Part shown: piece by piece, positions 5,613-32,654 of the stretch
How positions within the stretch are numbered: position 1 is the first letter of the stretch
Layout: every line of letters begins with the position of its first letter
Assembly: GCA_963796105.1 (NCBI GenBank)
Contig: CAWCKJ010000007.1
Coordinates: 96,001-160,000 of the forward strand
Direction: 5' to 3'
From: a candidate division FCPU426 bacterium
GTDB lineage: Bacteria; Oederibacteriota; Muellerivitia; Muellerivitales; Muellerivitaceae
Length of the DNA: 64,000 bases
Program-made: the position numbers and the translations under genes
Notes under the pieces: generated by a model
What the model saw: the letters and a program-made list of their open reading frames with translations, nothing else
The model's database searches: none
What the model was told of the DNA's origin: nothing

Positions 5613-5770
5613 CAATGTCGCCGGAAAACTGGCTCTCGAAAGAAGTAAGGGATTAGAGGCATTTTAAACATTGGATTTATTAGGCAACTACAAAAAAATG
5701 TCTTTTGGAGGGAAAAAGTTTGCCTGGGAATCATTTCGAATGGGAAAAGGGCCGGATTCAGGCCTATTTC

Positions 5771-6442: not shown

Positions 6443-6808
6443 TTTTATTTAACTCTTCTAATTTTTTTGGCCGAATATCTGCGGTTTTTAATATTTCATT
6501 TCAAAGCCGTTTACGCCATATCTGATTAATTCTTTTCCGCGTCCAAGGGACGACTCGCCGCACCCCATATCAGCCTTCCATAAACCTGATAGTGAGACTG
6601 GCATAGTACCGATTTCTATTACCGTTTTGTTGTAAATCGCTGCAGTGTAGGGCAGGGCTTAGGGCCGCCATGTGGCCTATTTCTGAAATCAGCCGGGCAT
6701 CCATCTTAAGATTACCCACATTAGAATTTTCCTTTGCCCGCTCACCGGCACCGCACGAATGAAAACCCATAGACTAAAAGCGGGGAAAGAGTCTTCGCCC
6801 AAACGAAT

Positions 6809-8731: not shown

Positions 8732-8869
8732 AAGGCCCTCTTTCCGGCGAGATAACAGCGGTTCAAACCCAATGATGATGTCTCATTGCCGATAGCGACA
8801 AATAATAATAACAGCGTCAGGAGTAGCCCTGGATTTTCGAGGCTCTCTTGAAACAATACCCCCCGTAAA

Positions 8870-8986
8870 CTACCTCAAGACCAGCCACTTGAGGATTTGC
8901 CTTTGCCCCTTCACCGTTACCGCCACGTAATAAAGCCCGTCGGCCAGGGGAACGCCGTCCTGATCCGCCAAGGGAAGGGGCAATAC
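8870..8986 (-). repeat. 117-bp direct repeat, copy 1 (last 38 codons plus stop of the hydrolase gene)
   Basis: Matches 12172-12288 with one mismatch (GAACGCC/GAATGCC). Confidence 0.95.
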
Positions 8987-11900: not shown

Positions 11901-12154
11901 GAACCACCCGGGTAACGGAGAAAATAATTCCCCGCCGCCTGGACTTGCCTCTGGGTGTTCATGTATTCGGCCGCGTCAATCCAATCACCCGTGTTATTGC
12001 CGAAAATGTTGATGGGAACAAAAGAGGTCAAGGTTGTCGCGGCGTTGACCGTTATTGTAGTCGGAATGGTCTGGGCCAGTACAAACGGGGGCCAGACGGC
12101 TCCGATGACCGAGGTGAAAAACAGGAAGCTTATAATAAATTTCAAAGCCTTCAA
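8870..12154 (-). CDS. Secreted multidomain clan GH-A glycoside hydrolase (GH51/GH44-like) with discoidin-like insert, CBM11/CIA30-like domain, Thr/Pro linkers and C-terminal sorting-like domain
   Basis: RYPGGS, YWQIGNE (acid/base), FHWYP, MMTEYN (nucleophile); VDDFE...W..YQIPFS domain; YPNP...IYTVACRKV...LADGLYYV tail. TTG 12154 preferred as start because the ORF-track start 12190 lies in a duplicated segment. Confidence 0.8.
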
Positions 12155-12171
12155 GTAAAACCTTTTTCTTT

Positions 12172-12288
12172 CTACCTCAAGACCAGCCACTTGAGGATTT
12201 GCCTTTGCCCCTTCACCGTTACCGCCACGTAATAAAGCCCGTCGGCCAGGGGAATGCCGTCCTGATCCGCCAAGGGAAGGGGCAATAC
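12172..12288 (-). repeat. 117-bp direct repeat, copy 2 (orphan gene tail upstream of the hydrolase)
   Basis: CTACCTCAAGACCAGCC...GGGGCAATAC, as at 8870-8986. Confidence 0.95.
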
Positions 12289-12394
12289 TCCCTTTTCAAC
12301 TTATTTAAAATGCCTATTCCAAAAGTCGCATCCGCTTTATGGGCGCTAACAAAGAAAGGGGCTTTGCGTAAGCAGGTCCAATTAAAATTTTGGT

Positions 12395-12470
12395 TTAATT
12401 GATGGTGACGTCGTCAATAAAGAGGTTCACGGTATTAAAGGGGCCCGTCGCCATAGAACTGTTGACGAAA
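12395..12470 (-). pseudogene. Orphan 3' tail of a paralogue of 12509-14101
   Basis: Translates ...ATGPFNTVNLFIDDVTIN*, compared with ...TSGPFNTVDFYLDDFSIE* at the end of the neighbouring gene. Confidence 0.65.
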
Positions 12471-12508
12471 GGTCGTCCCTTGATTCTTTCCGCACGGAAA
12501 CGCACGAT

Positions 12509-14101
12509 TTATTCAATGCTGAAATCGTCAAGGTAAAAGTCAACGGTATTAAATGGACCCGATGTGCCTGAAGCCCCCGTGTAAAGGCTTATTGTAATTT
12601 CCCAAACTGCGGTAGGATCAATGCTACCATGGCCGCCATAAATGATCGGATATGTAATTTGCGTCCAAACCCCGGTAGTTAAAGTCACCGATTCTCCGCC
12701 ATCCCCATACAAAGTATCCACATCCAATCCTAACTGGTTGCCACTAGCATCGGGAAGTTGATTGATGTAATACCAGAAAGAAATTGATTTTCCGGTTAAG
12801 TTAACAGGAGGGTTGAAATTATAAAAGATCTCCCCAAACTGTGCGGCTCCGGAAAATAAGAATGTAGCGCAAGCGGATTGGCTTCCCGAATGAGACTCAG
12901 CGATTGTAAGCGCTAACGGCGATGCTGTTTCTCCGCTGCTCCAGGATCTCCATCCAGTAGGCAATGATGATTCCTCAAACCCTTCAGCCGGAAAAGTATC
13001 GACCGTGGAAGTTGGGGTGACGGTAGCGGTGAATGTTTCCGTGGCCGTGTTAGTAATGGTCGGAGTATTAGACGCCGTTGGTGTCGAATCAACCGCCTGC
13101 GACCCGTTGATAATACCCGGTTGGCCCGCTGTCCCGTTAATAGCTGAATTGCTTCCAGTCCCACCAGCCCCACCATTCACCTCCATAAAACCGGAAAAAG
13201 GAGGAGCATTAATATCAATAATTCCACCGCCGCCGCCACCCCCTCCACCAGCCTGCGCAGAATTTTCTCCCGACCCGCCATTAGCGGAAATAGTGCCGTT
13301 ACCTAGGAAATATGGGACTGCGATATATATCCCGCCGCCTGCGCCACCCCCGCTGCCGTTGCAATACCCCACACTGCCTCCTACGGATTGGCCGTCCATA
13401 TCAATAGTTCCATTGATGGTGACAGCTACGTTTCCAGAACCCGAACCCGAGGCAACTATCCACAATAAAGCCCCACCGCTTCCCCCTGAGTTGGACGGAC
13501 AATTTCCACTACCTCCCCCACTACCCATTAAACCGGGGACAGTAGTGTCGTTTTTATTTGTCGAAAGTGTGTTTGGCGTCGCCCCGTCGCCACCAGAACC
13601 CCCATGACCACCGCCTGTGCCAGTGGAACCTCCTCCACCAGTGCCAAGTCCCGGACCATAGCCCAAGCCGACGCCGTTGATCGAACCACCGGCTTCCGCC
13701 GTTAGGTACTGGTAGATATCAAGGGTCACCGCCCCGTTGATATAAAGCGTTCCTCCAGGGGATATAACAATATCCTCATAAATATAAGTCCCGGACGTTA
13801 GTGTGACCGATCCGGTAACATTGAGGGTGGGAAGGGGCGTTGCTGTGGAGGTCGCTGTTTTAGTTGGTGTGGAACTCACGGTTGGCGTATTGGTAATAGT
13901 CGGGGTTGGGCTCGCGGTGAAAGTCACCGTAAGCGTCATCGAATTCGTCGGCGTAATGGTTTGCGTCAGTGTTGGAGTGATGGTCGGACTTTGAATGGTA
14001 ATAGGCTTGGCGGGAGTGCTGATGGAGGAACTACAAGCGCCGGTCAGGGCCGCTGCCACCGCGAGGATGAGGACCGAGGCCCAAACGGATTTGTTCCCCA
14101 T
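12509..14101 (-). CDS. Lipoprotein: Thr/Pro stalk, Gly-rich domain, C-terminal carbohydrate-binding-like domain
   Basis: MGNKSVWAS...LTGAC lipobox, TPT repeats, GGGAGGG repeats, ends FYLDDF. Confidence 0.8.
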   Translation of the reverse strand: MGNKSVWASVLILAVAAALTGACSSSISTPAKPITIQSPTITPTLTQTITPTNSMTLTVTFTASPTPTITNTPTVSSTPTKTATSTATPLPTLNVTGSVTLTSGTYIYEDIVISPGGTLYINGAVTLDIYQYLTAEAGGSINGVGLGYGPGLGTGGGGSTGTGGGHGGSGGDGATPNTLSTNKNDTTVPGLMGSGGGSGNCPSNSGGSGGALLWIVASGSGSGNVAVTINGTIDMDGQSVGGSVGYCNGSGGGAGGGIYIAVPYFLGNGTISANGGSGENSAQAGGGGGGGGGIIDINAPPFSGFMEVNGGAGGTGSNSAINGTAGQPGIINGSQAVDSTPTASNTPTITNTATETFTATVTPTSTVDTFPAEGFEESSLPTGWRSWSSGETASPLALTIAESHSGSQSACATFLFSGAAQFGEIFYNFNPPVNLTGKSISFWYYINQLPDASGNQLGLDVDTLYGDGGESVTLTTGVWTQITYPIIYGGHGSIDPTAVWEITISLYTGASGTSGPFNTVDFYLDDFSIE

Positions 14102-14247
14102 ACCGATACCCCTTGAATTTATTCCCCGCCTCAAGAAAACAAGGGGGTATTAGCATTAAACTTAACCCTATTCAGTCTGGCTAAAGTTAAACCGGCATTC
14201 TTGAACAAGGAGCACTTGAATTTTTCTCAGCGAAAATAAAAAATAAC

Positions 14248-14805
14248 TTAAAAGTGCAATGCCGCCGTGACCTTGGGGCCGTAAGCCATGGCCGTCGTAA
14301 ATTCCGACCGACTCAAGAGGCCCACATTGATTCCAAGAGAGTATTTATCAACCGGAAATTCCAACAGATCCCCAAAACTTTTGTGTTTCAATTCTTTGAG
14401 CTTATCGTTGTGCTGGGAAGCTTCCATCGGCGCAAAAATCATGCTGGAAACCCACCCGCCCAGCCCTAAACCGAGTCCAATTTCCAGTCCGGTGTAATCC
14501 GTTTGGCCATAAGCGTTGATGCCGGTTCCTGATGGAAAACAGACCAGAACCACTGCCCCGCTTACGACAAATACATCGCAGAAAATCCCTACCGTAACAT
14601 CAACACCATCCCCGACATAATATTGGCCTAACCCGGGGACAAGAAATGAGTATAGGAAAGCCAAATTAGCATCCTTTTCATTCTCATTGTCCGGCATGAT
14701 CGTTCGTGGGAGAGGCTCACCACTCGCGTTTTGGGGAAAACAAGGCGTCATCAGCAACAACCCCATAAGCAAAATGCCCGCCCAGTGAATCCTGAAATAT
14801 TTCAT
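14248..14805 (-). CDS. Hypothetical exported/membrane protein
   Basis: Signal peptide; AFLYSFLVPGLGQYY motif followed by hydrophobic segments; GGGGG RBS. Confidence 0.7.
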   Translation of the reverse strand: MKYFRIHWAGILLMGLLLMTPCFPQNASGEPLPRTIMPDNENEKDANLAFLYSFLVPGLGQYYVGDGVDVTVGIFCDVFVVSGAVVLVCFPSGTGINAYGQTDYTGLEIGLGLGLGGWVSSMIFAPMEASQHNDKLKELKHKSFGDLLEFPVDKYSLGINVGLLSRSEFTTAMAYGPKVTAALHF

Positions 14806-14988
14806 AACCCCCCCCTTAAAAATTTCTCATTTCACGTTCAATTGCATTGGTACTTTCAAACCATTTATAGTAAGTGGCTCCCGCATTTGTTGTTAAGAAT
14901 TATCTAATGCGTTGGTGCATTTCTAAAAATAAGAAAACCGCGTTCCAAATGAAAATTTTACACAAACACTAATGCGTATTAACGCGAA

Positions 14989-15584
14989 CTAGAATTCAAC
15001 CAATTTGGCAGTAGGAGAGCCATCTTTTATAAGGATGATGCTTCCGGCCATCGCGGCTAGGCTTATACCGCTAATAGTCAATCCATTTGAGACCGCATTG
15101 TCAGAACTACCGGCAAAAGATCCAGCTCCGACAATAATTCCGAGAAGACTGCCAATGACAAGAGCGGCGCCTGTTAGGGTTTCCGCGCTTTTACCTTCTG
15201 TTAATTCCCAGGTTTGTGTCCCCCCATTCGCGCTTACGTGAAAACTGGGGCCAGGAGAGCCAGCTAGGGAATAAAACCCATTGGGCAGTTCCAATTCCGC
15301 GGGGGCCTCACAAAGAAGCTTGCTAGTTTCACCATACCCATTAAGAGTTGCGTTTAATCCGCTCGCGGAAATTTCGGTTTGGTTTAAAATTCGCTTTATT
15401 GACATTGTTTTATTACTTTCGCTTTTAAAATGAGTTTAGTGACTCCAGCTTGCATGTTTTGCCCATTTTCCTTAAGTACGCGAATACCTGATGAATCCTT
15501 GGCCCGAACGTAAAGCGGTAAAAAAACAATCGAGACGATCAATAAAAACTGCAACCCCATCATTTTTCCACGGAACATTTTCAT
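14989..15584 (-). CDS. Hypothetical membrane protein, probably one gene split by a one-base frameshift near 15428
   Basis: Adding one A to the A4 run (minus strand) joins ORF 15396-15584 (signal peptide) to ORF 14989-15405. Confidence 0.55.
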
Positions 15585-15738
15585 AAAATCTTCTCCTTCT
15601 GGAAATAGAACTAAACTTTAGTGATGACCGCGACATTCCCCCTTCAAATGTGTGAACATTCTCATATCCTTGCGTTTTTAGATTTTATATTTCTTTCAAG
15701 CCTAGAGGTTTCCACGGCCTTTTTAATACCGTTTAGGG

Positions 15739-16545
15739 CTAAGGACAAGTCTGCCCTTGGATGGAATAGATGGAACCCAAAAGGGCAGTGCCACCCGACC
15801 ATGTCAGTGGAAAATAGTATTGTCCGGGCGTTTCCGTGCCAGGAAAACTAGTCTCCACAAAACCAATGCTTCCTGTAGGCGAGGACAATTTTACGCTTGA
15901 ATAAAAAACCAACCAATAAGTGGTTGCGCTTGTGATACTGACCGATGTCTGCAATGGATATGAAAACCAAGCGTCCGACGAAACAGTCCCTAACGGTAAA
16001 GATTGGAAGCCTGTCTCTGAAAGTAAATTTCCCGGGAATAATGAACTATCGGAATAAATACCAAGTTCCAAACCCACTGCGCTTCCAGTCGCGGGGATAT
16101 AAATCTCAAGGCTATTCAAAGTTGTACTGGAAGTGGCTGAAAAGGATTGGGCGTAAAGATTATTTCCAATGGCGGTTCCAGCCGCGCCCGTGTTGCTCGT
16201 TCCTAAAACCGTGCTTGAGTTGCATGTCGGCGTAATCGTAGGCGTCGATGTCGGCGTGGGCGTATAGGTGGAGGTGCCCGTTTTGGTCGGTGTGGCAGTT
16301 ACTGTTGGTGTTCTGGTTTTTGTCGGCGTATTGGTCCCCGTAAAAGTCGCCGTTACCAAAATAGTCACGGGTGTATCGGTACTGGTGGGCGTGGCGGTGA
16401 TGGTATAGGTGGGTGTTATGGTTGGGGTTGACGTAGGATTATTATGTGGGGAAGAGGGATTACTGGAATTGTTGGAGCATGACACGGCAAAGACCGCCGC
16501 CGCCATGAGTACAAAAATGACCGCCCAAACGGATTTATTTACCAT
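15739..16545 (-). CDS. Lipoprotein with Thr/Pro stalk and beta-rich head domain
   Basis: MVNKSVWAVIF...AVSC lipobox, SNNSSNPSSP, TPT repeats. Confidence 0.8.
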   Translation of the reverse strand: MVNKSVWAVIFVLMAAAVFAVSCSNNSSNPSSPHNNPTSTPTITPTYTITATPTSTDTPVTILVTATFTGTNTPTKTRTPTVTATPTKTGTSTYTPTPTSTPTITPTCNSSTVLGTSNTGAAGTAIGNNLYAQSFSATSSTTLNSLEIYIPATGSAVGLELGIYSDSSLFPGNLLSETGFQSLPLGTVSSDAWFSYPLQTSVSITSATTYWLVFYSSVKLSSPTGSIGFVETSFPGTETPGQYYFPLTWSGGTALLGSIYSIQGQTCP

Positions 16546-16653
16546 TTAAATTCTCCCCATTTGAATTAAAAACAAAAGCCCCACACCGCAAACGCTGTCA
16601 GTGAAAAAAATCCCAGCCGCGACTGGCCAGGAACTTCTTCCAGACCCGCATTC

Positions 16654-17274
16654 CTATGTTGGCCAATGCAAGGTCCAAGCATCATTTACATTGCAATCGG
16701 TGACAGTATCATCAAAAGTCACGGTATTCGGCCCCGAACTGATCGTTGCCGTAAATTCGCATTGTGCTTGATTGCTGCACCAATAAAGGCCGGTAGGGTT
16801 ATTGGCCGTGAATAATTCGAAAGTAAGAACATACTGCCCGGGAGTTGCGTTGTAAAAAATCGTGACGGCATTCATGCTGGTATAAGGATCTCCTTGCGCG
16901 TTTTGGCACGTATAAAAAGCAGAACCCAGGCCATTCGCGCTGCCGTCCATAGTTACGATGAGTGAATACCCGCAGGGATTTTTTAAATTAAAAAGCACGT
17001 AGCCTTTTGCCGGCGCTTGCGTAGGAGTCATGGTGGGTGTTGAGGTAATGACGGCCGTCGGGATCATTGTGTGGGTTTTAGTGGGGGTGGCGGTTGGCGT
17101 ACTTGTATAAATGGGTGTGATAGTTCTCGTGAGAGTGGGGGTAAGGGTCGGGGTTGCTGTAGGATTATTATTTTGCGGGGAAGAAGGATTACTGGAATTG
17201 TTGGAGCATGACCCTGAAAAGACCGCCGCCGCTATAAGTATAAAAATGACTGCCCAAACGGATTTATTTTCCAT
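16654..17274 (-). CDS. Lipoprotein with Thr/Pro stalk and Cys-containing head domain
   Basis: MENKSVWAVIF...SGSC lipobox; 5' end similar at DNA level to that of 15739-16545. Confidence 0.8.
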   Translation of the reverse strand: MENKSVWAVIFILIAAAVFSGSCSNNSSNPSSPQNNNPTATPTLTPTLTRTITPIYTSTPTATPTKTHTMIPTAVITSTPTMTPTQAPAKGYVLFNLKNPCGYSLIVTMDGSANGLGSAFYTCQNAQGDPYTSMNAVTIFYNATPGQYVLTFELFTANNPTGLYWCSNQAQCEFTATISSGPNTVTFDDTVTDCNVNDAWTLHWPT

Positions 17275-17774
17275 TTAAATTCTCCCCAAATAATTGTTGA
17301 TTAACTTGTTGGATGTTAAATGCGTCGATATGCCTTGAATATGGCTGTCATCATACAAGTGCGATTAAATCGTGTGAATAAAATAAAAATAATTTTATGA
17401 TGTGAATGTAAATTTTGAGTCAAGCAGTTACCAATGGTTACCATTAAATTTTAATGCCGGGCTTATTAAACAGTTTTTAGAAGTAACGGCCTGGCTTTTG
17501 CCCGGGTTTCGTTTTTTAGCGGGAATCAAAACAATATCGAGTGGTACAAATTCCGATTGTTGCCCCTGAAAGCGGTATCAAAAACCTTCTATTGGGGTTG
17601 GATGGGTTTAGAAATTCATTATTTAGGTTTAAATTGTAAGAATTATGCGGTTTTGACCGAGAATGGGGACTAGCATTGACCTCCGCTGGCGCTCATCGTC
17701 GTCATGGCAAGGCCGGACCCAGATGAAACCAACCGCCAATTTGAGCCATGGGAAATGGATGAGAGAGAAGATCC

Positions 17775-19202
17775 TTATTGGATTTTTCGGATGAGGCTGT
17801 TGCCCGTGTCGGCAACATAGACATTTCCCGCGGAATCCACCGCGATTCCTTGGGGATAATTGAAGGACGCGCCTGTCCCGGTGCCATCGGCATGCCCCAC
17901 TGTGCCGGCCTGTCCCGCCAGGGTGGAAACAGTTCCAGAGGTGATTTTTCGGATGAGCTGGTTGCCGGTATCCGCCACGTAGACATTCCCGTAGTTATCC
18001 ACCGCGACTCCGTCGGGAAAGCTGAAAGACGCGGATGCAACGGATCCGTTCATGCTCCCAGTCACGCCCGCCTGGCCCGCCAGGGTTGACACCGTCCCGT
18101 CGGGGGCGATTTCCCGGATAAGGCTGTTACTCGTATCTGCCACATAGACGTTGCCGGAGGAATCCACCGCGACGCCATTCGGATAATAGAATGATGAAGC
18201 TGATCCGGGGCCGTTGGAGGACCCTGTCACGCCCGCCTGTCCGGCCAAGGTGGTCACATCGCCCCCCGGTAAAAACTTCCGGATGAAATGGTTATCGGTG
18301 TCCGCCACGTAGATGTTCCCGGAGGAATCCACCGCGACTCCCGAGGGATAACTGAATAACGCGGCCGTCGCCGGCCCGTTCAAGGATCCTGTCACGCCCG
18401 CCTGCCCCGTTAAAGTTGATACCGCGGCTCCTGAGCCGATGATCCGGATGAGGCTGTTACTTGTGTCGGCCACATAGACGTTGCCGGTGGAATCAACCGC
18501 GACGCCATACGGATAATAGAAGGATGCGCTGGTTCCGTTTCCATTGGCATGCCCGGTCACGCCGGCCTGCCCCGCCACGGTCGACACGATACCGCCGGAA
18601 GTGATGATACGAATGAGTTGATTGTTTGAGTCCCCCACGTAGATGTTCCCGGAAGTATCCATGGCCACTCCATCGGGAAACCCGAACGTCGAGGAGGTCC
18701 CTGTTGACGCGTTAATGGCCCCGGTCACGCCCGCCTGGCCGGCAATAGTTGTGACAGCCCCGCCGTTATTGTGGGTGGAGGTAATAGTCATGGTGAACGT
18801 TTGGGTGCTCGTGGGTGTTTTCGTCGTCGTGTTCGTGGGCGTGGAAGTCATGTTGTTCGTGGGTGAATAAGTCGGCGACGGGGTTGGTGTCAGGCTGAGC
18901 GTGGGATTGGGGGTGTTCGTGGGGGTTAAAGTCAGACTGCTCGTAGGAGTATAGGTCGGCGTTTTGGTTCCGGTCTGGCTGGGAGTGGGTGTGCCCGTGG
19001 GTGTTAAAGTTAGACTGCTCGTAGGGGTATAGGTCGGGGTGGGAACCCCATTTTCAGGAGAGGAAGGATTACTATTACTCTTACATCCCGCCGAAAAGAT
19101 CGCAACCGGAATTACCGCCGCCGTCATTATGGAGAAAACCATGAATATCTTGCGTAACGGAGTTTCATTTTCCGGACGAAAACCAACCCCAGGATTGAGC
19201 AT
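17775..19202 (-). CDS. NHL-repeat beta-propeller lipoprotein with Thr/Pro stalk
   Basis: Six P.GVAVD..GN.YV.D..N..IR.I repeats; SAGC lipobox; start uncertain. Confidence 0.88.
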   Translation of the reverse strand: MLNPGVGFRPENETPLRKIFMVFSIMTAAVIPVAIFSAGCKSNSNPSSPENGVPTPTYTPTSSLTLTPTGTPTPSQTGTKTPTYTPTSSLTLTPTNTPNPTLSLTPTPSPTYSPTNNMTSTPTNTTTKTPTSTQTFTMTITSTHNNGGAVTTIAGQAGVTGAINASTGTSSTFGFPDGVAMDTSGNIYVGDSNNQLIRIITSGGIVSTVAGQAGVTGHANGNGTSASFYYPYGVAVDSTGNVYVADTSNSLIRIIGSGAAVSTLTGQAGVTGSLNGPATAALFSYPSGVAVDSSGNIYVADTDNHFIRKFLPGGDVTTLAGQAGVTGSSNGPGSASSFYYPNGVAVDSSGNVYVADTSNSLIREIAPDGTVSTLAGQAGVTGSMNGSVASASFSFPDGVAVDNYGNVYVADTGNQLIRKITSGTVSTLAGQAGTVGHADGTGTGASFNYPQGIAVDSAGNVYVADTGNSLIRKIQ

Positions 19203-20899: not shown

Positions 20900-21080
20900 G
20901 CACGATGTTTACACATATGACGATATATACAAATTATGTCGGATTTAGTGAAAGGATGACCACGATTTAGACATAAACACAAATAAACAACAAAAAAAGA
21001 CATCAACAAAAGGGTTAGTGGTTCGACTAGCTCAACAAAGGCTTTACCGAAGGAATCATATTGGGTGTACTTCCCTACCC

Positions 21081-21632
21081 GTAGGGTCGAGGACTGGCGA
21101 GGTGATGTGCAGGTTGATCCTTGGCTTGTTTCCCCGTTTCCTTCGCTCCGCGGACATTACTCCGCTTCTCCTGTCTGCCGAAGCTTCAGCGCAGGCAGAT
21201 AGCTACTTTTAACCCGTCCTACTCCCTCTTGCCTTCGACCGCCTTCCCGCGTTGCGTTATACGGCCTACCTTTTTCCAAGTATTTCTACTTGGGGCAAGG
21301 AGGGTCTCTCCAGTTGCTCAATGTGTCCTTGTCTTCATGCCGTGGCTAAGCACCCCGCCAGAGTGTTCCAGCGCATTGGCCATCTGGCCGCTGTTCCATG
21401 TTGCCTTCATCCCACGACGGAGGATTCGGCCTCTGGGGCTATTGTTTTCGGGGCCACCTATGCCTTCACTTGCGTTACGGCCTGACGACTCGCTCACCAT
21501 CCCGAAGATGGCTTTGTCGATGGGCTTCAGGCATTAAGTTTCCCGCTTGCCTGCCATCCTAGCTAATGGGCTTTGGCTATTACCCATGCAAGTCTACCTC
21601 TTGCTGAACACTCCTGCCTTTTCTGGACGCGC
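21081..21632 (-). mobile_element. Group II intron remnant, copy B (internal deletion removes ORF and domain V)
   Basis: Sense 5' end GCGCGTCCAGAAAAGGC and 3' end CCAGTCCTCGACCCTAC. Aligns with copy A except for a deletion joined near 21141. Confidence 0.85.
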
Positions 21633-22494
21633 GTAGGGTCGAGGACTGGCGCGGCGATGTGCAGGTAAACCCTTGGCTTGTTTCCCCGTTTCCGGTTCCG
21701 TGCCCGTTTAGGGTCTTCCATCATTCCGTTTCCAGCCCCCGCCACCTCGAACGCAACGTGCGGATTTCCCGCATTGCGCTCTCCTGTTGCTTTCGCGTCA
21801 AAGTTTATGGTGCTTATCGAAACCGGCAGTGCTTTCAAGTATGGTTCGCCTATGAACTTTCCCCTACTCCACCTGTCCCGGCTTTCTAAGCTTTCCCTTT
21901 AACGTATATCCCTCGTCTCAGGTCTTGCAGACTAATGGACGTCTTTTTCATACCGTCCCTGCCTCCCACTTTTGCCGAAAGATTTCACAACAGCAGGGTT
22001 ACTTCGCTCCACGGACATTACTCCGCTTCTCCTGTCTGCCAAAGCTTCAGCGCAGGCAGATAGCTACTTTTAACCCGTCCTACTCCCTCTTGCCTTCGAC
22101 CGCTTTCCCGTTTTTCGGTTATACGGCCTACCCTTTTCCAAGTATTTCTACCTGGGGCAAGGAGGGTCTCTCCAGTTGCTCAATGTGTCCTTGTCCTCAT
22201 GCCGTGGCTAAGCACCCCGCCAGAGTGTTCCAGCGCATTGGCCATCTTGCAGCTGTTCCATGTTGCCTTCATCCCACGACGGAGGATTCGGCCTCTGGGG
22301 CTATTGTTTTCGGGGCCACCTATGCCTTTACTTTCGTTACGGCCTGACGACTCGCTCACCATCCCGAGGATGGCTTTGTCGATGGGCTTCAGGCAGTCGG
22401 TTTCCCTCCTGCCTGCCATCCTAGCTAATGGGTTTTGGCTATTACCCATGCAAGTCTACCTCTTGCTGAACACACCGGCCTTTTCTGGACGCGC
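21633..22494 (-). mobile_element. Group II intron, copy A: ribozyme domains present, RT/maturase ORF almost wholly deleted
   Basis: Domain V GAGCGCAATGCGGGAAATCCGCACGTTGCGTTC (21749-21781; AGC triad, AC bulge), domain VI ending ACCCTAC, residual ORF start MKKTSISLQDLRRGIYVKGKA* (ATG 21951) and residual end RWSR...KALP. Confidence 0.9.
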
Positions 22495-22506
22495 CGTCGT
22501 GGACAA
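22495..22506. repeat. Hairpin repeat R0 (half site; 5' exon of the intron)
   Basis: CGTCGTGGACAA is the right arm of the consensus and abuts the intron 5' end. Confidence 0.85.
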
Positions 22507-22551
22507 CCCGAACCCTAAAATATCGAGACTGCTGTGGTCACAGTTTTGGTT

Positions 22552-23520
22552 CTACTTTTGATTCCCGATTTTGGCGTCAACTCCAGATACTTCTACAACC
22601 GCCTTCCAAAGGGCGTCCTGATTTGCGCGGTCATGGAGGTGTTCATGGCGCATGATCTCAATGGGACCCGTCATCTTTTTTGGAGGCGAGCAAAAGAACT
22701 TGCCAGAAACATCGACGCCAAACTTCGAGGCGGCGAGATACCTTTTGGCCCCTTCATCGACGGAATGTGACATTCCGGGAATAAGTTTCGAAATCCGCAC
22801 AAATACGTTCTTCATAAGAAAACCTAGATTGCGAGGCGCCAGGGTATCTGGAGCGGCCCCGGGTGAAACCGCGTATACGGCCATGTCCGCAGGAAGCTTT
22901 CGAGCAAGGGCCGCGACCCACCACGCGACAAATATTTTAGCGTCAGAGTAAGCCGTGCTAGCCTTGTATTTTACATTCGGGGAGCTGCGCAAAATCGCTT
23001 CTATGGCTGAAACCCGGTCGCCTTTGTACTCTTTCGCGGCGAATGCCGCCAAGTCGGTAAATTGAAACATGGGTACATCACCTCGCGCAGGTTCCGCGCC
23101 GGCAATAACAATACGAGCATCCGGCGCCAGAAGTCCGGCACCTAAAAGTCCCATCGTTAACTGGTGATGGCCGATCAACGGCGCTTGCGAAGCCTCAATG
23201 TTCTCGCTTGTCACAACACGTTCTTTGCCTGGCATCATACCAGCGTTGAGAAGGAGAAAATCTATGGGTTCGCCTCCCGCTCCCTTAACTAGCTCGGCGA
23301 CCGCCTTCTTCACGCTTGCAAACGAATCTAGGTCGAGGGCAAGACCGGTGATGTTTTGTGTTCCGGCATCGATCTTTAACCTGCTAACCGCTTCATCCAC
23401 CTGGGGCCGGCTACGTCCAGTGACTATAACCTGACTCCAACCATCCATGGCAAGTTGCTTGGCTGCCGAGTATCCTAAGCCAGACGTAGCGCCGGTAACG
23501 AGTGCGACAGGCTTTTTCAT
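22552..23520 (-). CDS. Short-chain dehydrogenase/reductase
   Basis: TGATSGLG, LNAG and YSDAK motifs. Confidence 0.9.
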   Translation of the reverse strand: MKKPVALVTGATSGLGYSAAKQLAMDGWSQVIVTGRSRPQVDEAVSRLKIDAGTQNITGLALDLDSFASVKKAVAELVKGAGGEPIDFLLLNAGMMPGKERVVTSENIEASQAPLIGHHQLTMGLLGAGLLAPDARIVIAGAEPARGDVPMFQFTDLAAFAAKEYKGDRVSAIEAILRSSPNVKYKASTAYSDAKIFVAWWVAALARKLPADMAVYAVSPGAAPDTLAPRNLGFLMKNVFVRISKLIPGMSHSVDEGAKRYLAASKFGVDVSGKFFCSPPKKMTGPIEIMRHEHLHDRANQDALWKAVVEVSGVDAKIGNQK

Positions 23521-23569
23521 AGTTTGTCTCCTAAGTCTAACATTGTGGGAAATAGAACCATTTAATTAT

Positions 23570-23629
23570 TGTAGTATACGCTACAGAATGACCCAACTAC
23601 TGTCAAGTGATATTGTTGCGGTTGCTACA
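23570..23629. promoter_or_regulatory. Two candidate TetR operators between the divergent SDR and TetR genes
   Basis: TGTAG-N6-CTACA (23570-23585) and TGTTG-N6-CTACA (23614-23629). Confidence 0.6.
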
Positions 23630-23669
23630 AATAGATTGTCCGAAGTGTTTCGTATGGGTAAAATGAAGC

Positions 23670-24257
23670 ATGAGTCGAAAAATAGAATTTAATTACGATA
23701 ACGCGGTGGATCAAGCGATGCGGGTTTTCTGGGGTGAGGGATACTCTGGCGCATCATTAAAAGACCTTCTCAAGGCGATGAAAATTGGGGAAGGCTCCTT
23801 CTACAATACCGTCAAAAGCAAAAAACAACTCTACATCGAATGCTTGAATCGATATGGAGAGGTCGAAGGTAATAAAAGAATTTTGGCTCTAACATCAGCC
23901 CCGAATGCGCGTCTCGGACTTCGGGCTATGCTAAGCGCAATGTTCGATTGTCTCGATGATCCGAAGAATCCTTCATCTCTTTGCATGATTGCGGCAATGA
24001 TTTCCAATGATGTCATGGCTGATAGCGAATTAAAGAAAGCTGCTATTGCCAGGGTCAATCAAGGCAAAAAGTTAATTGAAGATAAGATTGATGAAGACAA
24101 AAAAGCTGGGCGTCTTCCTAAAAGCTATGACTCACATACAGTTGCTGATGTCATAGTTACTTACTTCCAGGGCATTTGGCGTATGGCCATGATTTCATAC
24201 AAACGGGAAAAGTTCGAGCGCGAATCAGAAGCATTTCTTCAAGGATTGGGCCTTTAG
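23670..24257 (+). CDS. TetR/AcrR-family regulator
   Basis: AMRVFW..GYSGASLKDLLKAMKIGEGSFYN...SK N-terminal HTH. Confidence 0.9.
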   Translation: MSRKIEFNYDNAVDQAMRVFWGEGYSGASLKDLLKAMKIGEGSFYNTVKSKKQLYIECLNRYGEVEGNKRILALTSAPNARLGLRAMLSAMFDCLDDPKNPSSLCMIAAMISNDVMADSELKKAAIARVNQGKKLIEDKIDEDKKAGRLPKSYDSHTVADVIVTYFQGIWRMAMISYKREKFERESEAFLQGLGL

Positions 24258-24354: not shown

Positions 24355-24386
24355 CTTGTCCACGAAGGGTCCCCGTCGTGGACAAG
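24355..24386. repeat. Hairpin repeat R1
   Basis: CTTGTCCACGAAGGGTCCCCGTCGTGGACAAG. Confidence 0.92.
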
Positions 24387-25532: not shown

Positions 25533-25603
25533 TTGTCCACGGCGCGGGCACTTCATGGACAACCCTTTTTCCCTCTCCACTCTGGGTCCCCGTCGTGGAC
25601 AAG
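25533..25603. repeat. Hairpin repeats R2a (inverted, 25533-25562) and R2b (25576-25603)
   Basis: TTGTCCACGGCGCGGGCACTTCATGGACAA and TCCACTCTGGGTCCCCGTCGTGGACAAG. Confidence 0.85.
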
Positions 25604-25730: not shown

Positions 25731-27461
25731 TCATCCGAAAGTAAAGGCATAGACGGAGGTACCTGCGTTTTGGAATTCGATACGCAGGCGATGGGAGCCG
25801 GGCTTTCCCTTTAAGTCCGCCAGGTTATAAAGCCGCTGGGTGTCCAGTGTCACCTTTCCATCCTTCACATCCGCTCCTCCCTCGCCGCCAATGGCTTTTC
25901 CATCAAGGAAAAGGGAGACCTGGTCGCCCTTGTTCGCCGGGCCGATCACCAGATACACCTTGTCCGCCGTGAATTGAATCTCAAGGGCCGAGCCCTGATC
26001 CGGCTTGGCCGCCTCGCCCGTAAGCATCCAACCGCCCTCGTAGCCGATCTGGTGGGACTTCAGGGACTTCGGCAGGGAATAAACCTGCTTCCCGGCGACG
26101 GGTTTTTGCGGCGAGACGAAACGCTCCAATCGGTTCAACCCCAAATAAGATTCGGGGGTCTGGTCGTAATCCTCAGATGGGGCCTGCGCCAGGGTAGCGG
26201 CCCCTTCCACGGGATGGCCGGCCTCAGCCAGCAGCTTTCTGATGGCGGCGTCCATCTCCTCGTAATGGCCCTCGCTGAAATGAGCCAGACGGATATGACC
26301 CTTGTCGTCGATCAGGTACTCGGCGGGCCAGTACATATTTTGGTAGGCGTTCCAGGTTTTAAAGTCGTTGTCCTGGGGGACAGGATAGGTGATCTCGAAC
26401 TGTTTCAGGGCTTTTTGGACGTTGGCGGTTTCCTTCTCAAAGGCAAACTCGGGCGCGTGGACCCCCACTAGGACGAAATGGTCCGGACCGTATTTTTGAT
26501 ACCAGGCCTTGGTGTTGGGAAGGGTCCGGAGACAGTTGATGCAACTGTAGGTCCAAAAGTCAACCAAAACCACCTTTCCCCTCAACCCCGCCAGTGTTAG
26601 GGGAGGGCTGTTGAGCCAGTTCGTGATGCCGGCGAACTCTGGCGCCGGGCCCATGTCCGCAAGTTCCCCCCCATTTCTGCGCTTTCCTGGCGGGATTTCC
26701 TTCCCCTCAGGGTATCCAACTGCTCGCTGACGATCTTGTTGTTTTCAACCCCATTGACCAGGCTCCCATAGGAAGGAAAAGCCTCCAGGATCTTCAGCTG
26801 AATGGTCTTATCGTAATTGGTGTAAATGAGAAGGGCCACGCCGATCATGATGACGCCGAAGACCTGCTGGATGCGGCCCGTGTACTTGTTTAACTTGCGC
26901 ATCCGGGCGAAGAGGAAAGAACCCCCCAGGGAGACCAGGAACAGCGGTATCCCCAACCCCACCGCGTAGGCGAGGGTCACCAGTACCACCTGAAGATTGA
27001 CCGATTGGGTGGCGGCTAAGGTGGCGATGGTGGCCAGGATCGGTCCGGCGCAGGGCGCCCAGACCAAGCCGATGGAAAAACCCGCCACGTAGCCAGCGCC
27101 GAATCCCGTCCCTTCGCCCTTCCCCTGAAGGCGGTTTTGCAGGGGCTGAAGAACCTGGTTAATCCAGGTCTCGAACTTCGCGCCCAGGGAGGGGAATAAA
27201 AGGGCCACACCCAAAAGGCCGATGACAATGACCGCGACTAGTCTGAAGACATTGGCGTCAATGTGGAGGAAACGCTCTAGGTAGGACACAAACAGCGTGA
27301 AAAGGGTGAAGCTGGTCATGACCCCCAGGGTCAGGCCGAAGGGTTTTTCCCTTTCCCCCGGTTGAGGAGACAGAAAGCACCAGGGGCAGAAGGGGCCAAA
27401 TGCAGGGGGCGAGGATGGTGGCGAAGCCAGCCAGGAAGCTGAAGAAGAGAAGGAAAAGCAT
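25731..27461 (-). CDS. dipZ: DipZ-type protein (CcdA membrane domain, thioredoxin, C-terminal domain); two apparent frameshifts
   Basis: LAPCIWPLLP, GLVWAPCAGPIL, DFWTYSCINC, TPESYLG. Frame changes in an A5 run (about 27346) and a G7 run (about 26669), both minus strand. Confidence 0.85.
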
Positions 27462-27562
27462 GGGAACCCCTTTCGGTGGATTTGTTGACTTAAACTACAA
27501 CGAATCACCCTGAAAATTTACGGAAACCCCTTCCATCAACACCTCTTTTTGCGTGAACCCCA

Positions 27563-28225
27563 TCAAGGGTGTTGGTGAATGGCTTCTTGCGCCACCTTCA
27601 ACAATTCATCCGTATCAACCCGCACTTTAATGTCTGGGTTGAAATAAACGTAATGAATAATCCCTTTTTGATCGACGACATAAGCGGCCGGGACCGGAAG
27701 CAGGTGGAGCTGGTTCCCCGTTGCCGAATCCAGGTCCACGCCGAAACTTTTCATTTTGGCCAGGGTTTCCGGGTTGAGCCGGTAGGCCAGGTGAAATTTC
27801 CGGGTCAATTCCATGGAACGGTCCGAAAGGAGGGTGTAGTTGATCTGGTGCTTGTCCAGGCTTTCCTTAAGTTTTTCCGGCTTATCCGGGCTTATGGCCA
27901 GCATCTGGTATCCCATTTCTAGGAGTTTTGGCTCGATCTTCACCAACTGGCCCATTTGAAGGTTGCAATAGGGGCACCATCCGCCTCGGTAAAAGATCAG
28001 CACCGTCGGCTTTTTCAGGATTTCGGACTTAAAATGAAAATCTTTCCCGTCCAGGGTTTTTAAAATCCCGTCAGGTATGGAATCCCCTGATTTAAGTGGG
28101 TGGACATCTTCGGCTTTGTCCGCTACGAATTTGTTCATGGGTGCGGCCACGACACCCCCCCTTGAAGCAACCATCGAAAGGCAAAAAAAGCTTACGAATA
28201 AAAACGCCCCTATTTTCACTCTCAT
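27563..28225 (-). CDS. Exported peroxiredoxin-like (AhpC/TSA) protein
   Basis: FYRGGWCPYC and LPVPAAYVVD motifs; signal peptide. Confidence 0.88.
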   Translation of the reverse strand: MRVKIGAFLFVSFFCLSMVASRGGVVAAPMNKFVADKAEDVHPLKSGDSIPDGILKTLDGKDFHFKSEILKKPTVLIFYRGGWCPYCNLQMGQLVKIEPKLLEMGYQMLAISPDKPEKLKESLDKHQINYTLLSDRSMELTRKFHLAYRLNPETLAKMKSFGVDLDSATGNQLHLLPVPAAYVVDQKGIIHYVYFNPDIKVRVDTDELLKVAQEAIHQHP

Positions 28226-28460
28226 ATCCTCCGTTGACTATTGGTTGAACGGAATATTAAAAATCCAAAAAGGGCCTTATGACCCATCTCTTGGTAGGCG
28301 AAAGGAGAAAATCGAACGGCAGGAAGTCAACTAGGCATTGAAATTGCCGCCAGTTCTTTTTCGGCGCCCCAAAAGCTTTTTTCCGCCTCCCGTGGTGCCC
28401 TTTCCCTTCGAGGGCCCAGGGCCCTGAGCACCCTTGAAGGTGTGGTTCAACTTTCCTTTT

Positions 28461-28985
28461 TTACGGTTTCTTTTCGGACACGAACCGCACTGCGGCGGAG
28501 TTTATGCAATACCTCAGGCCCGTGGGTAGCGGCCCGTCGTCGAAAACATGGCCCAGGTGCCCCCCACAGCGGGGGCAATGGACCTCCGTCCGGTCCATGC
28601 CCAAGGAAGAATCGGTTTGGGAGGCCACGTTTTCCGGATAGAGGGGCTTATAAAAACTGGGCCACCCGGTTCCAGACTCGAACTTGGTGCCGGAGGAGAA
28701 AAGCTCCAGGCCGCACCCGGCGCACACATAGACCCCCTTCGCATGGTTGTCCCAATAGGCGCCGGAAAAGGCGGCTTCCGTTCCCCCTTGTCGAAGGACA
28801 TCGAACTGTTCGGGATTGAGGATTTTCTTCCATTCGGAGTCGGTCTTAACGACCTTGTCACCCCTGTATTTTCCTTTATAACATTCTTTCTCCTTGTGGA
28901 CCGCCGAATCTTTCGCGAACACGGCATAGGATAGGGCGGATAACACGAAGAGAATTCCCAATAACAATCCCATCATTTTTCTCAT
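28461..28985 (-). CDS. msrB: Exported peptide methionine (R)-sulfoxide reductase
   Basis: [22 protein letters not shown] and RYCINS; two CxxC; signal peptide. Confidence 0.95.
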
Positions 28986-29030
28986 GGCAAGCTTTTTAGG
29001 TGGTAAATTTCTTTCCCCTCTTTACAAGAA

Positions 29031-29056
29031 TACGGCTCAGGGCAGGATAAGGTTAC
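29031..29056 (-). promoter_or_regulatory. Candidate ECF sigma promoter for msrB
   Basis: GTAACC-N16-CGTA on the minus strand, about 45 nt upstream of the start. Confidence 0.4.
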
Positions 29057-29169
29057 CCTGCCATCGGTTACATCTTTTGGGTCGTCTGGGTCAAGAACAC
29101 CCAAGGAAATCCGGGGGTCCCGGGAACCAAAATAATATACATAATCCTTTTGTTGAGGCCGTATCTGTT

Positions 29170-29952
29170 TCAAGGAACAATTGGGTAAACCCAACCCACA
29201 CCACCAATTTTCATAGTGTACTCATCTTCCAAAAAAATGGCGAGGCCGGTGAAGCTCTTTTTCCATTCAGGCTCCAAGGAAACGGTAGTTTTAATCCATT
29301 CTGCTTTTTTCAAGGAAACACTCCTTATTCCAACAACCGAGCGAACTACAAAATTTTCGGTCAAGTCCCTGCCTTTGTTTTCTCCACTTTCAACATGGGT
29401 TATTAAATTATTTTCGAAAACAGCCATCATGACTTTCCAGGGCCCGCCCGTTTGCGATCCGGCTAAAGGCTGGAGCTTAATCTTGAGGGCCATTCCTCCC
29501 GTGACCGGCGAAACAGCGACGACCACCCGAGCCGATGCCTTGAGGTTGTCCGGCTCCTCGATTTCCCGGTGGGCTCTGGCGCCATCCGAAGCGACGAAAC
29601 CTGAGCGTCCCGAAACAACCATTTCAGGGGTATAAAGTGAGGAGGAACTCAAAGCGGAAGAATATTGACGCTGACGTTCCGTGAAAAATGACGAGGAGAA
29701 GGGATCTTTCCATCCCAGGTAATCCCAGTAATCCACGTGGAAGGCGAGCGGCAGGGCTTTACCGGCGCGGAAAAGTTCCATTCCCCAGCCGTTGACAAGG
29801 TCTCCCGCCGGAGGGCAACTGGAACAGCCTTGGGAAACAAACAATTGGATCAAGAGTGGCTGTTCGGGAATTGGACGGGACTGTCCATGGGCCGGAATCA
29901 GCAAAGACAGCCCCATCAATACTAGCGACGCTTTGAAATATTTAAAAACCAT
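29170..29952 (-). CDS. DUF1223-like exported thioredoxin-fold protein
   Basis: LF.SQGCSSCPPA, FHVDYWDYLGWKDPF, YTPE, GEN.G motifs; start uncertain (29952 or 30048). Confidence 0.88.
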   Translation of the reverse strand: MVFKYFKASLVLMGLSLLIPAHGQSRPIPEQPLLIQLFVSQGCSSCPPAGDLVNGWGMELFRAGKALPLAFHVDYWDYLGWKDPFSSSFFTERQRQYSSALSSSSLYTPEMVVSGRSGFVASDGARAHREIEEPDNLKASARVVVAVSPVTGGMALKIKLQPLAGSQTGGPWKVMMAVFENNLITHVESGENKGRDLTENFVVRSVVGIRSVSLKKAEWIKTTVSLEPEWKKSFTGLAIFLEDEYTMKIGGVGWVYPIVP

Positions 29953-30134
29953 GCTTTTCTTTGACACCACTTTAAAAGAGTCGCCATTAAAGGTTATTGG
30001 CGGGGATAAGGCAAGGCCCGAAGAACCCGCTAAATGATTTAGATTCACGTTTTTTCCAATTTATCTTTCAGTAGCGAAATACCCTTGTGGCTTTGTTTAA
30101 GTTACTGATTTTTGATTAATATTTGAAATGTTCA

Positions 30135-30163
30135 TTGTCCACGACGGGTCCCCGTCATGGACA
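30135..30163. repeat. Hairpin repeat R3
   Basis: TTGTCCACGACGGGTCCCCGTCATGGACA. Confidence 0.92.
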
Positions 30164-30176
30164 GCTTTAAAGCCAT

Positions 30177-30764: not shown

Positions 30765-30792
30765 TTTTTCTCCTTAATAAAACTATTTATCA

Positions 30793-30817
30793 TCCAATCT
30801 GGGTTCCCGTCGTGGAC
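30793..30817. repeat. Hairpin repeat R4 (left arm degenerate)
   Basis: TCCAATCTGGGTTCCCGTCGTGGAC, directly against the stop codon at 30818. Confidence 0.8.
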
Positions 30818-31906
30818 TTATTTTGTAATCGACCCCGCAGTCGCTTCCTCCACAAAAAGCCTAGATGCGGGAGCCAGATTGGTTCCTGAGAAAGTGGCCT
30901 GATTTAAGATGGTTGTCTGGACGTTATATAGGGTCGAACCGGTGGCCACCGGATAAGCCGCCGAAAGATCCGCCGGGGAGTTTATATCGGGCCCAATGGA
31001 AGTATAGGAATCATACGTGGTCACCGGCCCTCCGGTTTGTTGAATAACAACAATCCCATCCGAATTCCCCTCGTAGGTCCAAGTGATGGCCGTACCTGCC
31101 GCGTTGGCCGTAAGGCCGCCAGGGGCGCTGACCGATGCCGAGGTGACGGTTCCCAGGGAAGTGCTGACCGACATCGAGTAACTTCCCGCGAGCTGATATG
31201 TCACGGCCGTGGAGTAAGAATACCAAGCCATTCCGTTGTAATTCGTTAAGTATGGAAGCGTCAAGGGGCCGCTTGGAGTGTTTAAAACCACCGAATCCGT
31301 GGTTTCCGGCAAACCGTTGACGGTAATCCATGCAAAAGGTGTCATACTCAATGTTCCATCCCCCCAAGCGTAGCCCTGGACATAGATACCCGGTGGAAAT
31401 GTGGCTGTTGGTGTCGATGTTGCTGTAGCTGGAACCGTATTGGTGATAGTTGGGCTGTTGGTGGGCGTCCTCGTGGGGGTTTTGGTCGTGGTATTTGTTG
31501 GGGTATAAGTAATGGTAGGAGTTCCTGTTGGCGTAGCCGTAGGGGTTATGGTAGCTGTATTCGTCTGGGTAGACGTGGCCGTTTTCGTCGGGGTGGAAGT
31601 GATTGTCGGCGTGACTGTGTTCGTGGGGCTGTTGGTCGGGGTAGAAGTCGATGTAACCGTTGGTGTGGAAGAAGCTGTTGAGGTGGCCGTCGATGTGGGG
31701 GTGGAAGTGGAGGTGCCGGTTTGCGTACAAGTCGAGGGATAGCAGACACTGGTGGATGTAAGGGTCATAGTCGGTGTATCGGTAGCGGTAGCTTTTTTAG
31801 CCGGGGGGTTTGTGGGGTTATTAGAGTTGCTGCAGGCGATCGGGAAAAGTCCCAAGAAAAAAAGAAGGATTAAACCTAAACCCAAAAGGAAAAATGATCG
31901 GCGCAT
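30818..31906 (-). CDS. Lipoprotein with long Thr/Pro stalk
   Basis: PIAC lipobox then SNSNNPTNPP; TPT repeats; GGAGG before ATG 31906. Confidence 0.8.
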   Translation of the reverse strand: MRRSFFLLGLGLILLFFLGLFPIACSNSNNPTNPPAKKATATDTPTMTLTSTSVCYPSTCTQTGTSTSTPTSTATSTASSTPTVTSTSTPTNSPTNTVTPTITSTPTKTATSTQTNTATITPTATPTGTPTITYTPTNTTTKTPTRTPTNSPTITNTVPATATSTPTATFPPGIYVQGYAWGDGTLSMTPFAWITVNGLPETTDSVVLNTPSGPLTLPYLTNYNGMAWYSYSTAVTYQLAGSYSMSVSTSLGTVTSASVSAPGGLTANAAGTAITWTYEGNSDGIVVIQQTGGPVTTYDSYTSIGPDINSPADLSAAYPVATGSTLYNVQTTILNQATFSGTNLAPASRLFVEEATAGSITK

Positions 31907-32009
31907 TGATGCCTCCCGCAAAAGATTCTATAAAGACCTTGAAATAGATTACCACTCCAACGGAAATCGAGGGGTTGGTTTTTCAAGGCCAAATAATCCA
32001 TGATTTATC

Positions 32010-32037
32010 GTCCACGAAGGGTCCCCGTCATGGACAA
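32010..32037. repeat. Hairpin repeat R5
   Basis: GTCCACGAAGGGTCCCCGTCATGGACAA. Confidence 0.92.
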
Positions 32038-32610: not shown

Positions 32611-32654
32611 AAAAGGGTTGTTCCTTACGGGTCCCCGTAAGGAACAACCCTTTT
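32611..32654. repeat. Hairpin repeat R6 (variant stem with compensatory changes)
   Basis: AAAAGGGTTGTTCCTTACG GGTCCC CGTAAGGAACAACCCTTTT. Confidence 0.8.

Follow-up and report, generated by a model that had tools for sequence, protein, structure and literature searches.

Bacterial group II introns have been reviewed by target class, and the classes named are homing sites, terminators and attC sites (PMC4424553). Closest in lifestyle to the introns described here are the group IIC-attC introns such as S.ma.I2, which likewise live in the recombination sites of cassette arrays (PMC3001079, PMC7923331). According to these papers, IIC introns have a 3-4 bp EBS1 and no EBS2, recognize the folded attC bottom strand and lie opposite to cassette transcription. 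In contrast, the lineage at our locus uses a 6-bp EBS1 and a 5-bp EBS2, inserts mostly on the cassette strand and targets a 30-bp non-attC site. IIB introns beside attC (UHB.I2, H.ha.F1/F2) are also non-IIC introns in cassette arrays, and UHB.I2 lies in cassette orientation. In PMC7923331 these are single cases with poorly conserved exons, whereas the present system comprises many insertions, covariation with the exons, and three lineages at fixed positions.

In architecture, our lineage resembles the IIE and IIF introns as characterized in PMC3753933. EBS1 and EBS2 both lie in subdomain ID, α′ is in the terminal loop after EBS1, the domain V (DV) loop has 5 nt, domain VI (DVI) is long, as is typical of IIF, and the reverse transcriptase (RT) has a maturase domain. 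Unlike the introns of that account, it targets a recombination site and its relatives target DV of other introns, and its assignment is to E or F jointly. Twintron-forming introns, for example those of Methanosarcina acetivorans, home into other group II introns as a perpetual safe site (PMC4424553), as most distant relatives of our lineage appear to do. Here, however, the copies are tandem instead of nested, and the lineage has moved to a cassette site.

On the cassette side, integrons, CALINs and the islands of large serine recombinases such as SCCmec are likewise rows of one-gene cassettes that share an orientation and are exchanged at a short site, frequently without a recombinase close by. 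The arrays described here differ from these systems in that neither attC cores nor IntI were found, in their 14-2-14 site, and in a 275-aa serine recombinase that has no zinc ribbon or coiled-coil tail and lies convergent behind a site; CcrA/B/C profiles gave weak matches, far under cut-off. The literature searched, largely outside subscription papers, yielded no report on serine-recombinase cassette arrays or on introns in such sites. The introns are real, a variation on a lifestyle already described, and the cassette system in which they live may be new.

The locus lies in the window, the whole 64-kb stretch of DNA analysed, from a genome designated G000. Positions 21081-22494 of its minus strand hold two group II intron copies in tandem, both matched by Rfam RF02003, with the first base of copy B directly after the last base of copy A. 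The features of the two copies and their exons are listed below.

21633..22494, minus strand: group II intron copy A, 862 nt, without an ORF; all of domains I-VI, a long DVI and features of the IIE/IIF kind (RF02003, 119.5 bits; ends from homolog junctions; DV/DVI fold)
21081..21632, minus strand: intron copy B, 552 nt, 95% like A (RF02003, 115.8 bits)
22495..22507, minus strand: 5' exon, repeat bases 1-12 plus one; IBS1 at 22495-22500, IBS2 at 22503-22507 (sequence, covariation)
22276..22281, minus strand: EBS1 CGUCGU, with delta C at 22282; in copy B at 21414-21419 (covariation, fold)
22303..22307, minus strand: EBS2 ACAAU, pairing with exon -13..-9; in copy B at 21441-21445 (covariation)
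22212, minus strand: likely EBS3 (C), pairing with G, the base that opens the 3' exon or copy B (top column, 37 introns)
22376..22380, minus strand: GACAA, a family-conserved structural word at what we take to be the base of subdomain IC, no exon-binding site (RF02003 consensus, homologs)
21749..21781, minus strand: DV of copy A, with AGC triad and 5-nt loop (RF00029, 38 bits, just below the 40-bit cut-off; fold)
21886..21951, minus strand: 21-codon stub from the beginning of the gene for the intron-encoded RT (full ORFs of relatives begin alike)
21063..21080, minus strand: 3' exon after copy B, beginning with GGG as the repeat core does and with a degenerate right arm; the array's last site (homolog junctions)

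Copy A shows the hallmarks of a group II intron in its RF02003 match, its DV/DVI fold and its ends, GCGCG and AC. The 5' end departs from the canonical GUGYG...AY by a T-to-C change at base 2, which is common to copies A and B and absent from the other 42 of 44 aligned 5' ends. The class features of the lineage are α′ at the terminus of its stem-loop, the 5-nt DV loop and the long DVI, with α/α′ covariation judged by eye; copy A appears to fit the IIE/IIF description. The two copies are 95% identical over 496 bases. Copy B has a 309-nt deletion that takes out DIV, DV and the 5' strand of DVI and is therefore predicted to be unable to self-splice. Its DVI end is closer to a relative in the genome G049 than to the DVI end of copy A, and its end is not complementary to EBS1.

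The intron-lineage protein matches TIGR04416. In G000, no RT or maturase with PF00078 or PF08388 was found; the assembly is 96.8% complete and may leave repeats unassembled. Since no RT was found there, both copies would now be stranded. With both flanks joined, the intron-bearing site scores just 6 bits on the site matrix. Copies A and B are relics, which limits the local biological weight of the locus. Another remnant of the same intron family, a stub with half of DV plus DVI, lies at G000:C3:817630-817675, 200 nt from a degenerate site. Among the sequencing runs searched with the 64-kb window, none covers half of it (best share 0.18).

A sequence-only reading of this DNA had proposed that the 5' exon is one arm of an array hairpin and that the intron recognizes it through two words, CGUCGU and GACAA, both kept in copy B. 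The exon does end in the left arm of the repeat, terminating in TTGTCCACGACG. The words lie where that reading had put them, CGUCGU at plus-strand positions 22276-22281 and GACAA at 22376-22380, both read on the minus strand, on which intron A begins at 22494; copy B has them at 21414-21419 and about 21514-21518. In the fold, CGUCGU occupies a 7-nt loop on a 5-bp stem. Its role as EBS1 is borne out by covariation with exon -6..-1: across 41 homologous introns, 0.911 of positions are Watson-Crick paired, against 0.581 in exon permutations, none of which (0/200) is as high. Whole words change together among the homologs, as in AACCGU/ACGGTT, GAAGGG/CCCTTC and UGUCUC/GAGACA. The covariation set holds 41 of the 44 distinct homologous 5' domains, leaving out copy B, which lacks its own exon, as well as L010 and L011, whose junctions are irregular. 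The null of 200 exon permutations does not correct for relatedness.

GACAA did not survive this comparison as EBS2 and was rejected on covariation: it scores 0.249 versus 0.268 permuted, 171 of 200 permutations are as high, and it stays constant while the exon changes. The word is present in the RF02003 consensus. Of the 35 homologs aimed elsewhere than at the repeat, 20 keep it unchanged, and it is missing from one that does aim at the repeat (L009). By chance, a given 5-mer is expected 0.32 times per 330 nt; GACAA occurs twice. The best window outside EBS1 is instead ACAAU against exon -13..-9 (0.727 versus 0.425 permuted, 0/200 as high), and this is the canonical IBS2 position of IIB introns in PMC8643678. 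In EBS1 and EBS2, recognition is of IIB type, with a 6-bp EBS1/IBS1, a 5-bp EBS2/IBS2 in subdomain ID and IBS2 at -13..-9. For the likely EBS3, C22212 is the top column (0.811 versus 0.549 over 37 introns), with other columns likewise beating all shuffles, lifted by kinship.

The homologs come from a DNA search of 99 genomes of the phylum and a protein scan of the genome collection, where 77 loci were kept of 235 confirmed stretches. The yield was 61 distinct exon-intron pairs and 44 distinct 5' domains. A metagenome pattern scan used a query that included a repeat arm, so its 20 loci (two of them not introns) gauge no specificity. Among same-family genomes, 7 of 30 have the 5' domain of the copy-A/B intron. 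Sixteen distinct junctions, the window's excluded, show EBS1 CGUCGU: twelve follow repeat base 12, where the 3' exon continues the repeat, one is at the centre and three (L011, L049, L056) are elsewhere. L049 and L056 are copies of one other element, which pairs five of six EBS1 bases. Most relatives with this EBS1 carry a full RT ORF of about 450 aa. The proposal that the intron is specialized on the repeat holds up, 13 of the 16 sitting in it; the specificity is not absolute (3/16 off the repeat). The junction at the centre belongs to L010 (G048:C3, about 168460-169975), a 1.5-kb 5' intron piece (bases 2 to about 1509) at the central GA of the site with one A on both sides. This single case may be a record of the repair of a cut at GA.

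Relatives in other phyla lie mostly in the 3' strand of DV of other group II introns. By exon-end pattern, 28 of 34 family rows have DV-like exon ends, and most, not all, are evident DV/DVI by eye. The proteins of the three repeat-targeting introns in the tree form one clade (SH-aLRT 99) inside the DV-targeting family, in a quick tree with kinship uncorrected and row L008 (a cassette ORF) left out. Because the distant relatives mostly target DV of other introns, the lineage was probably retargeted from there to the repeat. A widespread clade of many phyla (L060-L123) sits in the DV 3' strand of other group II introns, where its insertions would disable the host ribozyme. Targeting of DV by introns may already be in print.

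The repeat itself has the consensus TTGTCCACGACGGGGACCCGTCGTGGACAA, two 14-base inverted arms around GA, 30 bases in all; the same site can also be read as 12-6-12. In the window, the other sites and the neighbouring cargo are as follows.

24356..24385, minus strand: intact 14-GA-14 site (57.6 bits)
25533..25602, minus strand: two adjacent sites, a strong one at 25573-25602 and a weak one at 25533-25562 (site matrix)
30135..30164, minus strand: intact site (site matrix)
30790..30819, minus strand: weaker site (site matrix)
32008..32037, minus strand: intact site (site matrix)
32618..32647, minus strand: variant site with both arms changed, behind a Fic-domain gene (sequence, Pfam)
22552..24257, no strand assigned: cassette cargo between the site at 24356 and the intron-bearing site (Pfam)
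22552-23520, minus strand: short-chain dehydrogenase, in the cargo (Pfam)
23670-24257, plus strand: TetR, in the cargo (Pfam)

A strict 16-base pattern of the repeat occurs in 26 of 30 family genomes, in the one other genome of the order (1/1) and in 1 of 67 others; the reversed pattern has no matches in the genomes scanned. Across G000 and 40 further loci we counted 278 sites, and 0 in the reversed sequence; these loci were fetched around known sites, so occupancy is no random sample. Neighbouring sites are co-oriented in 201 of 207 pairs, and 188 of 200 segments have a co-oriented longest ORF, with a median gap of 828 nt. Cassettes are compact and hold one ORF, which covers a median 0.81 of the segment. 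Individual cassettes turn up again beside different neighbours: seven full-length pairs are at least 95% identical, three of them across genera at 96-100%. The TetR/dehydrogenase cassette of the window has a 92% copy in the genome G053 (L179), starting at the same site. These are mobile, co-oriented single-gene cassettes. In the seven pairs, mismatches at the upstream site end by base 12 and divergence at the downstream site starts from base 19 on, apart from at most two pairs that each have two isolated mismatches before that point. The exchange is bounded by this comparison to the six bases (13-18) that hold GA, at a resolution that does not reach down to GA itself.

Changes in the arms are seldom compensated, either within the same site (19/114) or across cassette ends (17/114), so the site looks to be read as duplex sequence, not as a folded hairpin. 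Complementarity between the two ends of the same cassette sums to 10.18 against a null of 10.03 (sd 0.08, maximum 10.33; 186 of 200 segments), a weak effect not counted as support. As for attC, the core pair RYYYAAC/GTTRRRY is in none of the five strong window sites (280 nt examined), and the best IntI match in G000 has 67 bits versus a cut-off of 265, with the control genomes also all below and so no positive control. The attC identity of the repeat is rejected, as the cores and IntI were not found. Membership of the intron in IIC-attC is rejected on its covarying EBS2, its 6-bp EBS1, the non-attC site and mostly cassette-strand insertion; what stands of the analogy that the earlier reading drew to IIC-attC introns is the lifestyle. 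A REP/RAYT reading of the repeat was set aside given rare arm compensation, neighbours swapping at the core, and HUH genes with terminal repeats of their own. A CRISPR-like reading was dropped on spacing alone, which is gene-sized and irregular.

Serine recombinases use 14-2-14-like sites with an asymmetric central pair, and cross over at two bases. Two of the array flanks encode a protein of 275-278 aa with resolvase and recombinase domains (PF00239 and PF07508) and no zinc ribbon, in which the serine and DRLxR motifs are visible. A protein search found it at 10 loci, at 68% or more, in seven family genomes, and all 10 adjoin a site. In eight, no more than about 35 bases separate the end of the gene from an intact site on the opposite strand, the gene lying convergent behind the site. 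The remaining two are a locus at a site split by the copy-A/B intron lineage and a frameshifted copy overlapping a site. Full-length serine recombinase relatives, by comparison, have a site in the fetched flanks at 0 of 19 loci. The short proteins, 275-283 aa long, group into 19 clusters set off from longer relatives (at most 59% alike), and stop where a zinc ribbon and coiled-coil tail would follow. Judging from these adjacencies and from the site's architecture, the site is likely cut at the central GA by the short serine recombinase.

The protein is present in 7 of 30 family genomes versus 26 of 30 for the site. In G000 the gene was not found, just the tail of its cassette: 75 nt plus a half-site at G000:C6:187366-187440, 87% like L188 and without the gene. 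L188 itself (5879-12913) has the recombinase in a 7-kb segment between two sites, which also holds a toxin-antitoxin pair and an ORF resembling ArdC, both labelled by eye; the segment may be a master cassette able to move itself. Elsewhere, several copies of the recombinase gene are truncated at the 5' end.

Two further intron lineages target the same site. The second (I2, RF02005) inserts after base 20 and has two ORF-less copies on contig C4 of G000 and two full ones in G053. Its EBS1 changes from CGGGUC to UGGGUC as the exon changes from GACCCG to GACCCA, and a relative in G049 has a different EBS1 and a different target. The ORF-less copies (G000:C4:38853-39566 and 34945-35658; L003) are identical and sit in sites of one array, which starts 1 kb from a trio of tyrosine recombinases. 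For the third lineage (I3), the insertion point is after base 29. Of 23 matches to the I3 5' end, 20 are preceded by the repeat and the other three are not introns. Its EBS1 pairs fully in all 18 rows checked, and a filled/empty pair confirms its boundary. It leaves the site whole, on the side of the downstream cassette. I3 (L154:10022 and relatives) starts UCGUG or GCGUG and mostly ends GC, versus the usual GUGYG...AY.

The proteins of the window's lineage, I2 and I3 are 38-45% alike, and the window's lineage and I3 occur together at one site in L047, L055 and L059. Most of the insertions lie on the cassette strand; the exceptions are L234, L238 and a single I3 junction out of 20 (in L156). 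Filled and empty versions of one cassette (L131 versus L156) differ by the intron alone. We lean towards the broader view that this is a hitherto undescribed integron-like system in which a tail-less serine recombinase acts on a 14-GA-14 site, and that it is old and active enough for three unrelated intron lineages to have re-aimed their guides at it independently. The window's lineage (I1) and I2 split the site and would freeze the joint; I3 lands just outside and would travel with the cassette. Within this view, I1 would have jumped from DV to the recombination site.

Our main reading, at a probability of roughly 0.72, is that the window holds tandem ORF-less introns after base 12 of a cassette-bounding palindrome, that the lineage likely retrohomes there as a parasite via EBS1, EBS2 and EBS3, and that the site is likely cut at GA by the short serine recombinase. 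A DV-targeting ancestor would have been retargeted by changes in EBS1 and EBS2. The intron RNP would recognize the left arm by EBS2 and EBS1 and reverse-splice after base 12. A many-copy intergenic site that is renewed as cassettes arrive might serve as a safe haven, and insertion on the cassette strand might let the intron be transcribed and spliced with the array. Insertion after base 12 parts one arm from GA, and the site would be inactive at the DNA level. Copy B would have been the first resident. The exon/B junction still offers IBS2, IBS1 and G as IBS3, so copy A probably homed into it. Against this reading stand the missing recombinase gene in G000 and the narrower distribution of the protein (7/30) than of the site (26/30), together with the degenerate right arm at this locus (6 bits), the three off-repeat junctions among 16, and the occurrence of both orientations.

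That some other enzyme moves the repeat (a tyrosine recombinase, a full-length serine integrase or an HUH transposase acting on a REP-like hairpin), the short recombinase being cargo and the intron part remaining right, seems unlikely to us. The arrays of G000 do lack the short protein, and the genome has 16 Y1 matches, 36 tyrosine-recombinase matches that include a trio next to an array, and a serine integrase of 512 aa that is 55% similar to the short recombinase; the 12-6-12 reading of the site could also suit such an enzyme. However, every short-recombinase locus adjoins a site and no full-length locus does (10/10 versus 0/19), no tyrosine recombinase or HUH cluster recurs at array flanks among the matches listed, and the rarity of compensated arm changes, within sites and across cassette ends alike, speaks against recognition of a folded hairpin. 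The trio itself was dismissed as a candidate, since among the matches listed it has no recurrence at other arrays. How the tandem arose is a separate question, and an intron RNA circle, or local duplication or recombination, in place of a second homing is a possibility of some substance, though doubtful. One IIF intron forms circles (PMC3753933), and A and B share the change at base 2 that the other aligned 5' ends lack. In contigs of 90-95% relatives, a precise 3'-to-5' joint appeared in 2 of 4 RNA-library runs and 0 of 4 DNA runs, a weak sign given uneven cover and differing settings. Yet A and B differ at 5% of 496 bases, the DVI end of B is closer to the G049 relative than to A, and the exon/B junction is a complete target for A.

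The sequence-only reading had also left it open whether the intron is a parasite of the array or a participant in building it. Parasitism fits better. No support emerged for the building half: the lineage is less widespread than the repeat and branches from among introns aimed elsewhere, and the three lineages occupy three separate positions. In its full form, the building idea holds that an RT and site-specific insertion join genes to sites and so make cassettes, as proposed in print for IIC-attC introns (PMC3001079). The compact single-ORF cassettes, with their median coverage of 0.81, would suit it, as would I3 leaving the site whole beside the downstream cassette and the L010 piece at GA itself. 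We nevertheless regard it as very improbable, as each of the three lineages has relatives aimed elsewhere, of 30 family genomes the site occurs in 26 and the window's lineage in 7, and L131 and L156 differ by nothing except the intron. Nothing observed requires a building role for introns, and the parasitic reading is retained.

What is new here is the EBS map with its corrected EBS2, the retargeting and the three-lineage convergence. The convergence of three lineages on the joint of a non-integron cassette system amounts to independent, RNA-encoded evidence for a conserved functional site, and the lineages are natural examples of retargeting by EBS change. Cassette systems still unknown might be discovered by reading off intron targets. 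Should the short enzyme act on a single symmetric 30-bp site with no directionality tail, it would be a candidate for a new tool and a test of the role of that tail.

Outside the intron locus, the window has two 99% identical HUH elements (Y1 plus DnaA-like HTH) at 193-1211 and 3763-4782, with 32-nt terminal inverted repeats; about 13 HUH genes of this type occur in G000. Abutting the second element is a tract of 21/22/43-nt tandem repeats (4741-5641). A run of Thr/Pro-rich, probably secreted proteins extends over 6809-19202 and 30818-31921, with one NHL beta-propeller and most without a Pfam match. Between two sites lies a redox block (25731-30048) of DsbD/thioredoxin, AhpC-like, MsrB and DUF1223 genes. 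A frameshift near 26600-26660 seems to divide the DsbD/thioredoxin pair; the C4 array of G000 contains a related gene.
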